In this document: piece by piece, positions 20,334-29,835 of the stretch
How the letters are laid out: each line of letters opens with the position of its first letter
How positions within the stretch are numbered: position 1 is the stretch's first letter
Source: Pirellula staleyi DSM 6068
Lineage (GTDB): Bacteria > Planctomycetota > Planctomycetia > Pirellulales > Pirellulaceae
Assembly (NCBI GenBank): GCA_000025185.1
Contig: CP001848.1
Coordinates: forward strand, 2,970,001-3,002,000
Direction of reading: 5' to 3'
DNA: 32,000 bases
Made by a program: the position numbers and the translations under genes
Notes under the pieces: generated by a model
Database searches by the model: none
What the model was told of the DNA's origin: nothing
Seen by the model: the letters and a program-made list of their open reading frames with translations, nothing else

Positions 20334-20337
20334 AAAG

Positions 20338-20410
20338 TGGTCAGGGCCGGAGTTGAACCGGCGACACATGGATTTTCAGTCCATTGCTCTACCAACTGAG
20401 CTACCTGACC
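20338..20410 (-). tRNA. tRNA-Phe (anticodon GAA)
   Basis: The reverse complement folds as a 73-nt cloverleaf. Acceptor GGTCAGG/CCTGACC, D-arm GCTC-AGTTGGTA-GAGC, anticodon arm ATGGA-CTGAAAA-TCCAT (GAA), variable loop GTGTC, T-arm GCCGG-TTCAACT-CCGGC, discriminator A. CCA is not encoded. Confidence 0.93.
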
Positions 20411-25186: not shown

Positions 25187-27061
<1,875 letters not shown>

Positions 27062-27091
27062 CCACTCAGCGGCAAGGTTGGACTACGACTC

Positions 27092-27262
27092 CCTTAGCAA
27101 TCGATGTCGGGTGGTCTTGGGTCACACTGGCAAGCTTGCCAGGACAGAAGCTGGGACCGATGTGGTGGGTGAAATCTGCCTGAAAGGTAGGGCTCATCGA
27201 CAATTCATTGGGTAGAGCTTAGTGGAACACACGCTTGAAGCCTGCTGGTTGCTGCCTGACAT
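27092..27262 (+). repeat. Copy A of a structured intergenic repeat element (candidate ncRNA, 3'-UTR element or REP/MITE-like element)
   Basis: By hand alignment it matches 29631-29819, with cores 27105-27260 and 29656-29811 about three-quarters identical. Four helices are shared. These are a closing helix (27104-27111 with 27255-27262) and three hairpins: 27127-27142, 27166-27182 and 27206-27224. It lies 31 nt after the ABC ATPase stop, in a convergent intergenic gap. Confidence 0.6.
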
Positions 27263-27293
27263 TCGTCGATAGACGGTCTACCACAGCATTCAT

Positions 27294-28160
27294 CTACAGT
27301 GGCCGCTGTGGCCGACGCTCGCGCGAAAACTGCTGCTCGATATCGTCGATCTCGTGCTGCTCGCCATCGATGTCGTCGAGCCGGATCAGGTCTTCAATCA
27401 TTCCGGCCGTATCGCTGGCAGTTTGCGACAGCCGATTGATCCAGAGCGATTGCAGGATGCCGGTCGAATCGAACAGCTCGTCCCGAAAACATCCGAGCAC
27501 ACTGGTGGCGATCCGTTCGTTGAGATCGGCGTTCGGAGTCGGCTCGGCCTGGAGCGAGCGGAACGAGGCCCGCAGCGAAGCAATCGCCAGTTGCTGCGAA
27601 AGATCGTTCATCGCGGGGGAACTGGCCAGTTCGAAATCGGCGGCGAATTCTTTCACGCGCGTCGGCTCGAAAGCGAGTGGCTCGATGTCGATCGACGAAG
27701 CGAAGTGGGCCAGCAGCATATCGCACCAGCGCTCGACGCGCCGCCGGAGCCGGTTGAGCGCCACCGCTTCCCCAAAATCGAAACCCCGTCCGAGAAGAAT
27801 CAAACTCAAGACCCGATTGCGCGCCTCCTGATGCCCCATCATCACGCTCCGCGCGATCGGTTCGACTTCCGCTTCCCCTTGCACTCGGTCGTAGGCAATC
27901 GCTGCTGCGGTGAAGGTGCGGGTGAGGAGTTCGCTCGCCAGCACTTCTTCGAGAATCACCCGCAGACGCTGATAGTCGTGCGGGATTATCGCCGTATCGG
28001 TCGAGCGCGGGATTATGCGCTGCCAGCGCTCGAGGCGACATTTCGAGGCGGTCCAGTACTGCTCGAGGGCACTCTTCGGAATCCGTCCCATGCCACTGGC
28101 GAGTACTTTGCCATGCAGGGCCACCAAGGCACCAATTTCCACCAGCTGGCGAGCATGCAT
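27294..28160 (-). CDS. Hypothetical protein (289 aa, predicted all-alpha, no recognisable motif)
   Basis: The ORF is open to 28460, but the ATG at 28160 (MHARQLVEIGALVALHG) is preceded by GAGGA with a 6-nt spacer. The in-frame upstream part is Arg/Cys/Trp-rich and not protein-like. The sequence has helical heptad-like composition and an acidic C-terminus (EDLIRLDDIDGEQHEIDDIEQQF). Confidence 0.6.
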   Translation of the reverse strand: MHARQLVEIGALVALHGKVLASGMGRIPKSALEQYWTASKCRLERWQRIIPRSTDTAIIPHDYQRLRVILEEVLASELLTRTFTAAAIAYDRVQGEAEVEPIARSVMMGHQEARNRVLSLILLGRGFDFGEAVALNRLRRRVERWCDMLLAHFASSIDIEPLAFEPTRVKEFAADFELASSPAMNDLSQQLAIASLRASFRSLQAEPTPNADLNERIATSVLGCFRDELFDSTGILQSLWINRLSQTASDTAGMIEDLIRLDDIDGEQHEIDDIEQQFSRERRPQRPL

Positions 28161-28254: not shown

Positions 28255-28462
28255 ACGGCGGCTCTGCGGCATCTTTTCCTGTGGCAGTCGATACCTGCAA
28301 AGCAACGTACCCGTCCCATTGCACGCCCCGTGCCAAGTGGCGGCTGGCCAGAGGAACTGGTCCCCCAGTTTCCGGCTGCTGAAGCAAGAAAAACTCGGAA
28401 AAAGAGCTTAGAATGGGGAAAAGAATTCCAAGCTACCGAAGTTCGAAGCGAATCCAACAACG

Positions 28463-28495
28463 ACGCCCGCGAAGTCGCGGGCGTTGCCTTTTCGC
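28463..28495 (+). terminator. Orphan rho-independent terminator-like hairpin (end of an sRNA, or a leader attenuator)
   Basis: A 9-bp GC-rich stem pairs acgcccgcg (28463-28471) with cgcgggcgt (28476-28484) around tetraloop aagt, followed by tgccTTTTc. No annotated plus-strand gene lies upstream. It is 170 nt before the phosphoesterase start. Confidence 0.5.
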
Positions 28496-29238: not shown

Positions 29239-29580
29239 ATGGCCAAGTACCTGATCTCCTTTCCGAGCGCTGCGATGGTGGTCCCTGAAGGGGAGTGGGA
29301 CGCAGTGGTTCGCGACTCGCATGCCGTGATCGAAGAGGCAAAAGCTGCTGGGGTCTACGTCTTTGGGGGTGGCATCGACGCAAGTGTCCCCCCGGTTCTC
29401 GTCGCAGCCGACGGAGCAGTCGCCGAGGGGGGCTACCCCTGGGCACCTCCCCTCAACGGCGGCTTCACGGTGCTCGAAATACCGTCGCGCGAGCAGGCTA
29501 TCGCGTGGGCCGCGCGCCTTGCGAAGGCCTGTCGTTGTGACCAGGAGCTTCGTGTCTTCGGGTTCGACCCGCAGTCCTAA
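29239..29580 (+). CDS. YciI-like (YCII-related/DGPF) domain protein
   Basis: 113 aa: MAKYLISFPSAAM...VIEEAKAAGVYVFGGGI...GGFTVLEIPSREQAIAWAARLAKA. The length and the pattern of a C-terminal helix after a 'GGF.v.e..s.eeA' segment fit YCII-related proteins. Confidence 0.7.
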   Translation: MAKYLISFPSAAMVVPEGEWDAVVRDSHAVIEEAKAAGVYVFGGGIDASVPPVLVAADGAVAEGGYPWAPPLNGGFTVLEIPSREQAIAWAARLAKACRCDQELRVFGFDPQS

Positions 29581-29620: not shown

Positions 29621-29636
29621 CCAGGCGGAGCCTTAG
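29621..29636 (+). repeat. 16-nt direct repeat, left copy (ccaggcggagccttag)
   Basis: Identical to 29820-29835. A partial third copy (gcggcttagcacttc) lies at 29597-29611. Confidence 0.8.
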
Positions 29637-29819
29637 TACTTCGTCTATCGACCAATGTCAGGTGTTTTGGGGGCCACTGGCATTTTGCCAGTTCAGAAGC
29701 TGGAACCGATGTTTTGGGCAAAATCTGCCTGAAACATAGAGCCTATTTACACTTCTCACTGGGCAGAGCCCAGTGGCACTCTGGATGGAAGCCTGCTCAT
29801 TGCTGCCTGACTTTGATCT
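29631..29819 (+). repeat. Copy B of the structured intergenic repeat element
   Basis: Homologous to 27092-27262 in the same orientation. Its helices are 29657-29662 with 29806-29811, and hairpins 29677-29691, 29712-29734 and 29757-29775. It starts 51 nt after the YciI-like stop and ends 13 nt before the stop of the convergent oxidoreductase gene. Confidence 0.6.
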
Positions 29820-29835
29820 CCAGGCGGAGCCTTAG
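29820..29835 (+). repeat. 16-nt direct repeat, right copy (ccaggcggagccttag), overlapping the oxidoreductase stop codon
   Basis: Identical to 29621-29636. It contains tta (29832-29834), which is the TAA stop of the minus-strand gene 29832-30932. Confidence 0.8.

Follow-up and report, generated by a model that had tools for sequence, protein, structure and literature searches.

Bacterial MITEs measure less than 200 bp, carry no transposase gene, end in terminal inverted repeats, are flanked by direct repeats, occupy intergenic positions that differ in occupancy between close strains, and yield a transcript that can fold (PMC3184786). Among such repeats, bcr1, which is found in the Bacillus cereus group and measures about 155 bp, is transcribed, is flanked by direct repeats and has a distribution that varies among close strains; its RNA adopts a multi-hairpin ("cruciform-like") fold that is kept by base-pair-preserving changes, the stability of this fold having been repeatedly lost in some copies (PMC3184786). 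Long target duplications, of 16 to 28 bp, have been described for the bacterial DDE transposons of the IS1202 group (PMC10132070).

The stretch of Pirellula staleyi DNA that was analyzed here (32,000 nt, hereafter the window) contains exactly two copies, A and B, of a short sequence, located 2.5 kb apart. An earlier note had read the helices shared by these copies as the product of selection on a structured RNA of the plus strand. Our analysis leads us to consider A and B as copies of a non-autonomous MITE-like transposable element of about 185 nt, a reading to which we give a probability of roughly 0.6. Their small size (MITEs being under about 400 bp), their lack of a coding frame, their inverted-repeat ends, their target duplication and their presence/absence polymorphism correspond to the anatomy of a MITE as defined in PMC3184786. 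A and B are not a conserved structured-RNA gene, and neither of them looks like an independent RNA gene.

Two Diverged Copies between Convergent Genes

A and B are homologous (blastn, 76% identity over 162 nt, E = 1.5e-25; mean column identity of 83% in the MAFFT alignment). They are diverged copies that are 76–80% identical. Copy A (185 nt, positions 27090–27274, plus strand), which gives blastn and nhmmer matches in the loci of other strains (L016–L022), is kept in all seven strains examined and is missing from a sister species. Copy B, also on the plus strand, extends from 29637 to 29819 (183 nt) given a target duplication of 16 bp, and reaches 29825 (189 nt) if this duplication is 10 bp. 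It is polymorphic among strains: the window, L017 and L018 have it, and it is also found in L019 and L020, where it lies at contig ends.

The two copies have the same orientation, and each of them interrupts the very short interval that separates two convergent genes. To the left of A, the plus strand encodes an ABC-transporter ATPase, with its stop at 27061; to the right of A, the minus strand encodes a hypothetical protein of 288 aa, with its stop at 27294. To the left of B lies a YciI-family gene, which is on the plus strand and stops at 29580, and to the right of B lies a GFO/IDH/MocA oxidoreductase gene, which is on the minus strand and stops at 29832. The elements are in sense orientation relative to the upstream plus-strand genes, whose stop codons precede the element by 29 nt (A) and 57 nt (B) and the beginning of helix P1 (see below) by 43 nt (A) and 77 nt (B). 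The open reading frames that overlap A or B have only 44–45 codons, and the indels that distinguish A from B destroy any common frame. A and B are identical over long blocks, among which are CAGAAGCTGG, AAATCTGCCTGAAA and GAAGCCTGCT..TTGCTGCCTGAC; the complement of the conserved block GAAGCCTGCT, considered as a possible target, is not enriched in the window.

Empty Sites and Target Duplications

The loci of relatives, gathered via protein look-ups, come from six other P. staleyi strains (L016–L022), in which the neighboring gene is 98–99.9% identical, and from a sister species (L034), whose gene encoding the adjacent 288-aa protein shows 77% amino-acid identity and 74% DNA identity with that of the window. 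The gene order is kept in this sister species, in which the two convergent-pair spacers measure only 11 and 14 bp and in which neither blastn nor nhmmer finds any match to A or B in the locus. Within P. staleyi, strain L022 is devoid of B and shows a precise empty site, where a single CCAGGCGGAGCCTTAG directly abuts GTCAGG. At the filled sites, the same 16-mer (14 bp in L017 and L018) flanks an insert of about 183 nt on both sides. The left direct repeat of B in the window (CCAGGCGGAGCCTTAG, 29621–29636, with the 10-bp core GGAGCCTTAG at 29627–29636) is exactly repeated on the right (29820–29835), where it includes the stop codon of the oxidoreductase gene (29832–29834, minus strand). At A, the left direct repeat GGACTACGAC (27080–27089) matches its right partner GGTCTACCAC (27275–27284) at eight of 10 positions and constitutes a degenerate target-site duplication; the 10-bp repeats flanking A agree at nine of 10 positions in L019, and the intergenic spacer of the sister species, AACGGTCCGCA, is similar to the direct repeat of A.

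Since the sister locus is devoid of both copies, L022 has an empty site for B and direct repeats flank the copies, A and B are insertions that duplicated at least 10 bp of their target. A target duplication of 10 bp or more is long for most insertion-sequence families. Its length at B is ambiguous (10 versus 14–16 bp); if it is 10 bp at both loci, exactly 14 nt follow CCTGAC in each copy and A and B measure 185 and 189 nt, respectively.

Two other interpretations of these junctions were rejected: (i) a composite transposon with A and B at its two ends, the genes located between them being syntenic in the sister species that has neither A nor B, and (ii) a target motif CCTTAG, which is shared by both left junctions in the window but is read as CCGTCTAG in other A orthologues and belongs to the inverted-repeat arm.

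Inverted Repeats and Internal Symmetry

The ends of A and B read GTCTATCGAC..., and the family has a terminal inverted repeat of about 20 nt (GTCTATCGACSAATGTCAGG), whose inner part is helix P1. The right end of A (27255–27275) and the left end of B (29642–29662) are complementary at 20 of 21 positions. The former is the right arm of A (CCTGACATTCGTCGATAGACG, plus strand), which contains the 3′ strand of P1, and the latter is the left arm of B (CGTCTATCGACCAATGTCAGG, plus strand), which contains the 5′ strand of P1 (29657–29662). Neither of the two window copies has both long arms intact; within single copies, the inner 8–10 bp of the inverted repeat, i.e., P1, are intact. Some A orthologues also retain, outside P1, the 6–7 outer bp CCGTCTA...TAGACGG, which are missing from the A copy of the window.

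The interior of the element is pseudo-symmetric, the P2 and P4 hairpins mirroring each other around the central hairpin P3. B matches the family profile on the reverse strand (nhmmer, E = 9e-10), its alignment to its own reverse complement reaches a z-score of about 3.5 against shuffles and, in the B copy of L018, a 10-bp pairing is possible between P2 (5′ strand) and P4 (3′ strand).

Helices P1–P4 and Predicted Folds

When read again on the window, the coordinates and pairings that had been proposed for four helices, including every G:U pair of A and B, were found to be correct. All of these helices are on the plus strand. P1 pairs 27104–27111 with 27255–27262 in A and 29657–29662 with 29806–29811 (cctgac) in B, G27109:T27257 in A corresponding to A29660-T29808 in B; its pair probability is 0.90–0.98 in the A copies, and it is the only helix with a high pair probability across all copies. 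P2 is read on the window as the hairpin ctggca-agct-tgccag in A (27127–27132 with 27137–27142) and as ctggca-ttt-tgccag in B (29677–29682 with 29686–29691), its five counted pairs being all invariant. P3 is the hairpin tgggtg/tgcctg in A (27166–27171 with 27177–27182), where G:U accounts for four of the six pairs, and the central hairpin ttttgggca/tgcctgaaa in B (29712–29720 with 29726–29734), where its probability is 0.98; its pair probability is 0.00 in the A copy of the window and 0.76–0.92 in five other A copies. P4 is the hairpin cattggg/cttagtg in A (27206–27212 with 27218–27224), which includes three G:U pairs and has a predicted pair probability of about 0.03 in every A copy, and the hairpin cactggg/cccagtg in B (29757–29763 with 29769–29775), which is entirely Watson-Crick and is the mirror of P2. 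The pair probability of both P2 and P4 is 0.00 in two B orthologues; in the B copies of L017 and L018, P2 gives way to a 10-bp helix that involves the 3′ strand of P4.

The earlier note had proposed to fold both copies and had listed predicted folds without P1–P4 among the results that would tell against it. The minimum-free-energy fold of copy A holds P1 and P2 but misses P3 and P4, which is, for this copy, the outcome that the note had named as telling against it. Moreover, the consensus structure reaches only about half of the minimum free energy of each copy. For most copies, the four-helix fold is not the one predicted by thermodynamics.

Strand Asymmetry and Stem Variation

Pairs were counted on 10 copies, i.e., A and B from the window plus the orthologues from six other strains. 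Eight of the 29 pairs of P1–P4 are variable and each of them varies between Watson-Crick and G:U, without a single A-C cell, so the claim that the stem differences are exclusively of the G:U type on the plus strand, initially made from two copies, holds over the 10 copies. Overall, 96.5% of the cells are paired, compared to 29–51% with slid partners. If the consensus sequences of A and B are compared, the transitions that favor G:U and the opposite ones are distributed 6:0 inside the helices and 7:9 outside (one-sided Fisher test computed by hand, p about 0.02). Given this difference between stems and surrounding sequence, simple mutational bias is no explanation of the wobble-only pattern.

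The predicted stability is also asymmetric. With RNA parameters and dinucleotide-preserving shuffles as background, the minimum free energy of copy A is −66 kcal/mol on the plus strand (z = −2.9) versus −36.8 on the minus strand (z = +0.5), and that of copy B is −64.2 kcal/mol (z = −3.1) versus −54.7 (z = −2.2). The RNAalifold consensus of the 10 copies is likewise more stable on the plus strand (−47.8) than on the minus strand (−24.9). With DNA parameters, the plus strand of A is no better than shuffled sequences (z = +0.17). Since the plus-strand asymmetry is found with RNA but not with DNA parameters, it is an RNA-type (G:U) asymmetry and, if anything single-stranded is under constraint, it is plus-strand RNA. 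The claim of selection on a structured plus-strand RNA is thus supported only in part: the bias toward the plus strand is real, but the statistical power is weak and A and B are not a conserved RNA gene.

Changes affecting both sides of a P1–P4 pair are absent from the 10 copies, which represent about two lineages. RNAalifold adds two extra helices that carry three double changes (columns 30/69, from C-G to U-A; columns 112/151, from G-C to U-A; columns 114/149, from G-C to U-G), each of them being a single A-versus-B event. Five or six stem changes break pairs. In A, T is replaced by G at two outer pairs of P3; in the B copy of the window, T replaces A in P1; P1 of the B copy of L017 has lost 2 nt; and GG has become CC in P4 of the A copy of L019. 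Because these pair-breaking changes amount to half of the post-insertion stem changes, any RNA-level constraint is weak.

Sequence Variation and Gene Conversion

The seven A orthologues segregate at 37 of about 190 columns (19%), compared to 3.0% of the sites overall and 7.8% of the third positions in the gene adjoining A. The spacer beside B is almost invariant outside the element. Many of the minority alleles correspond to the state of the other copy, and the A copy of L019 has a B-like tract across P4; at the level of sequence comparison, exchanges between A and B by gene conversion since their insertion are thus shown. Gene conversion inflates the variation and makes the counted stem events non-independent. 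The wobble-only signature rests on about 10 non-independent events in effectively two lineages.

The implied identity of a structured RNA, with helices held by selection, is not supported by these comparisons: P1–P4 are devoid of double changes, the copies are insertions, and their variation is above that of third-codon positions.

Searches for Further Copies and Parent Elements

The pattern CAGAAGCTGGNACCGATGT, which is found exactly in seven of the 10 known copies, gave 15 matches in GTDB contigs (one genome per species) compared to about 17 expected by chance, the rest of the element being missing from these matches. No match to AATCTGCCTGAAA...GAAGCCTGCT was found in JGI metagenomes. The terminal-repeat pattern GTCTATCGACNAATGTCRGG had one chance match in metagenomes (L033) and none in viral contigs, and GAAGCCTGCTNNTTGCTGCC had one chance match in viral contigs (L035), within apparently coding sequence. 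The blastn searches against PLSDB plasmids and phage records found nothing. No third copy was detected in about 38 kb of P. staleyi sequence and roughly 390 kb of fetched loci, and walking outwards (loci L036–L038) did not reveal any additional copy; on the left side, the MAG contig stops where the window begins (L039). The contexts retrieved for the YciI cluster protein P0003 come from an organism that is unrelated, and the element is missing from them. No transposase gene was found in the window, nor was any autonomous insertion sequence with the same ends found there or, using GTCTATCGACNAATGTCRGG, in metagenomes and viral contigs.

A MITE family normally comprises many dispersed copies. 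It should be emphasized that only two copies have been seen here and that they are only 2.5 kb apart, which counts against their assignment to MITEs. The ambiguous and long duplication, the incomplete inverted-repeat arms of both window copies and the failure of the above searches to find an autonomous insertion sequence with matching ends weigh against it as well.

Alternative Explanations

A first alternative retains a mobile element but considers the G:U-only pattern as meaningless, i.e., as resulting from chance, from a G+T-rich plus strand, from conversion and from the comparison of an old, decaying A with a better-preserved B. The plus strand of A is indeed rich in G and T (G 60, T 47, C 42, A 42), and a strand-blind count of what the Watson-Crick stems of B become in A gives ratios of G:U to A-C outcomes of 27:7 and 18:10. 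The degenerate duplication and the decayed outer arms of A are those expected from an old copy. The existence of effectively two lineages with conversion tracts, the absence of double changes from P1–P4 and the five or six pair-breakers fit equally with such a view. However, it has to accommodate the contrast between 6:0 stem transitions and 7:9 outside stems, as well as eight variable pairs over 10 copies without any A-C. Furthermore, shuffles that control for dinucleotide composition still give z-scores of about −3, a value reached only on the plus strand. We consider this explanation as unlikely.

The explanation closest to the earlier note is that A and B are sibling small-RNA genes, i.e., paralogous and independently transcribed genes, possibly carried on a mobile element or derived from one, whose helices are under selection on the plus strand. 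The sister species, whose syntenic locus is devoid of both copies, and strain L022, in which B is dispensable, argue against this, as do the target duplications and inverted-repeat ends that bound the copies. A conserved RNA gene is expected to vary less than neutral sites; A and B show neither a slower-than-neutral evolution nor a syntenic conservation across species, and their variation exceeds that of the third-codon positions next door. The elements also lack any promoter-like or terminator-like site of their own: neither a sigma-70-like promoter nor a plus-strand terminator was found near A or B using generic consensus motifs, which may not suit planctomycetes. Nor do they have any Rfam relative. 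At the gathering score, Rfam 15 identified only a tRNA-Phe in the whole window and, with E-values up to 10 between 26900 and 30000, the sole match overlapping an element (mir-726) was at chance level (20.6 bits versus a gathering score of 76); ARAGORN did not find any likeness of the elements to tRNA or tmRNA. On the side of small-RNA genes stand the fold specific to the plus strand (z-scores of −2.9 and −3.1) with a consensus twice as stable as that of the minus strand, stem variation limited to wobbles, and the three compensatory A-versus-B changes of the extra helices. The long blocks that are 100% conserved between A and B, their common orientation and the retention of A in seven of seven strains would also be expected from such genes. 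However, the predictions do not include P4 of A, nor P2 and P4 of two B orthologues, and the consensus energy is only about half that of the minimum-free-energy fold of each copy. Taken as a whole, these data make the existence of sibling small-RNA genes quite improbable.

The only terminator-like site noted in this region is located on the minus strand (29187–29171) and is unrelated to the elements.

A third possibility is an RNA-mediated, SINE-like retroposon. Its transposition intermediate would be the structured plus-strand RNA, closed by a helix between its 5′ and 3′ ends, and a DNA copy of this RNA would be made at staggered nicks. Such a mechanism would explain the wobble-only plus-strand stems, the energy signal obtained with RNA but not with DNA parameters, and long duplications of unequal length (10 versus 14–16 bp). 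We nevertheless regard it as very improbable.

A transposon moving as single-stranded DNA, related to IS200/IS605 or to REP/RAYT, in which G:T-tolerant hairpins of the plus strand would be the recognition sites of the transposase, is hardly credible. The stability of the hairpins is strand-specific and the outer end CGTC is similar to the tag of one REP superfamily (PMC3733652), but A and B are far longer than the 20–40-bp REP units (PMC3733652). Moreover, with DNA parameters, the z-score of the plus strand of A is +0.17, and A and B have a target-site duplication and terminal inverted repeats. Elements of the IS200/IS605 and REP/RAYT families have neither of these two features.

Finally, repeats of diversity-generating retroelements, attC sites of integrons and bridge/seek RNAs of IS110 elements were rejected, since neither a reverse transcriptase nor an integrase nor a recombinase was found in the window and since the anatomy (intergenic multi-hairpin copies with long target duplications) is against all three.

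Discussion

If A and B are, as we propose, non-autonomous MITE-like elements, both are probably transcribed as 3′-UTR read-through, from the gene encoding the ABC-transporter ATPase for A and from the YciI-family gene for B. This putative origin is the most likely one because the elements lie in sense orientation downstream of plus-strand genes and because no promoter-like or terminator-like site was found. The resulting plus-strand RNA would be able to adopt a stable fold with several hairpins, closed by the helix of P1 and the inverted repeat. By analogy with what has been proposed for transcribed repeats of the MITE type such as bcr1, its likely role would be that of a 3′-end stabilizer or of a barrier affecting the end or the stability of the transcript. 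Weak selection on the RNA of A and B, or on the RNA of their source copies, may have generated the wobble-only pattern. The lack of A-C-type stem changes suggests a weak constraint on the plus-strand RNA, and an RNA-level constraint on this strand, most likely resulting from 3′-UTR co-transcription, is plausible.

If this reading is true, A and B belong to a previously undescribed small non-autonomous mobile element of Planctomycetota, with an unusually long target duplication. The presence or absence of B among P. staleyi strains provides a natural comparison for the effects of such an insert on the 3′-end stability or termination of convergent genes. The biological payoff would be modest unless the RNA-mediated reading is true. 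This work also calls for caution, since wobble-only differences between paralogues mimic the signature of an RNA gene but can equally arise in a transcribed inverted-repeat element that undergoes gene conversion. In this case, the comparison with empty sites reached the identity of the copies sooner than covariation could.

A and B share some features with sibling small RNAs, as a homologous pair of structured sequences of about 160–190 nt that have the same orientation, lie within a few kb and include conserved single-stranded blocks. They differ from them by the lack of any promoter or terminator found, by their target duplications, by their absence from the sister species and by their faster-than-neutral variation. 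Their size, their ends, their intergenic location and their strain polymorphism are rather those of MITEs, such as Correia/NEMIS from Neisseria or ERIC from enterobacteria. Unlike these MITEs, (i) they are two adjacent copies that are not dispersed, (ii) their duplication is at least 10 bp and possibly 14–16 bp, and (iii) they have no known parent insertion sequence and no similarity in Rfam, PLSDB or phage records. With bcr1, they share the status of a mobile repeat with direct repeats and a fold that is partly kept and partly lost. However, the direct repeats of bcr1 measure 5 bp, each genome contains many copies of it and its transcription is established by experiment, whereas A and B have 10–16-bp repeats and two copies, and are unrelated to bcr1 in sequence and in host phylum. 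The IS1202 group provides a precedent for a duplication of 14–16 bp such as that of B, and it is only in groups such as this one that a precedent for long duplications exists. Unlike A and B, whose ends read GTCTATCGAC..., the IS1202-group elements measure about 1.5 kb, encode a transposase and have 5′-TGT...ACA-3′ ends. Overall, A and B constitute a new family of MITE-like repeat with an RNA-foldable core, unusual by its low copy number, by the closeness of its copies and by its long duplication.

Sequence variation and exchange between the two insertions

Comparison of orthologous loci from other strains of the same species (L017-L022) showed that both MITE-like insertions, copy A (27090-27274) and copy B (29637-29825), are hypervariable: 19% of their columns segregate among strains, compared to 7.8% of the third-codon positions in the adjoining gene. 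Furthermore, A and B have alleles in common, and copy A of one strain (L019) carries a B-like tract (alignment columns 120-146). Taken together, the hypervariability, the alleles common to both copies and this tract point to an ongoing ectopic gene conversion between A and B, which lie 2.5 kb apart.

The junction of the right end of B with its duplicated target (29812-29819) also varies between strains by a 4-nt block (GATCTCC in the window compared to GATTGTT in L017 and L018), a difference that shortens the apparent target duplication from 16 to 14 bp.

Contig ends located at the insertions

The Logan contig of a near-identical strain (L016) begins within copy A, and its first 22-23 nt (L016:1-23; AGCAAATTCCCAGGCACAATTGG) match neither the window nor any fetched locus. 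Such a start may mean that the contig end is chimeric, that A is rearranged there or that the contig leads into a third copy. Three independent Logan contigs stop at or slightly within B (L016:2524-2545, L019:1-37 and L020:1-58), and these breaks could result from branching of the assembly graph due to the presence/absence polymorphism of B or from further copies.

Other features of the window

The only Rfam match at gathering score within the window is a tRNA-Phe (GAA) gene (20337-20410, minus strand). A G+C-rich hairpin (GGCAACGCCCGCGACTTCGCGGGCGT; 28459-28490) is located upstream of the gene encoding a 288-aa hypothetical protein; its Rfam matches to CRISPR-DR28 and STnc320 are weak and at chance level. 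In addition, direct repeats of 25 nt resembling TCGACGGCGGCAACGGCAACGACCT occur four times at 131-536, within an ORF whose third-position GC is 0.89; they look like DNA coding glycine/aspartate-rich nonapeptide repeats.

The YciI-family gene adjoining copy B

The YciI-family gene that adjoins B (29239-29580) is absent from the otherwise syntenic locus of the sister species (L034). Yet the protein belongs to a cluster of 433 members at 90% identity, one of them from Methylibium sp. and many on soil-metagenome contigs where the gene neighbourhood is wholly different (loci L023-L032). Its absence from the sister-species locus and the composition of this cluster suggest a recent horizontal acquisition of the gene.
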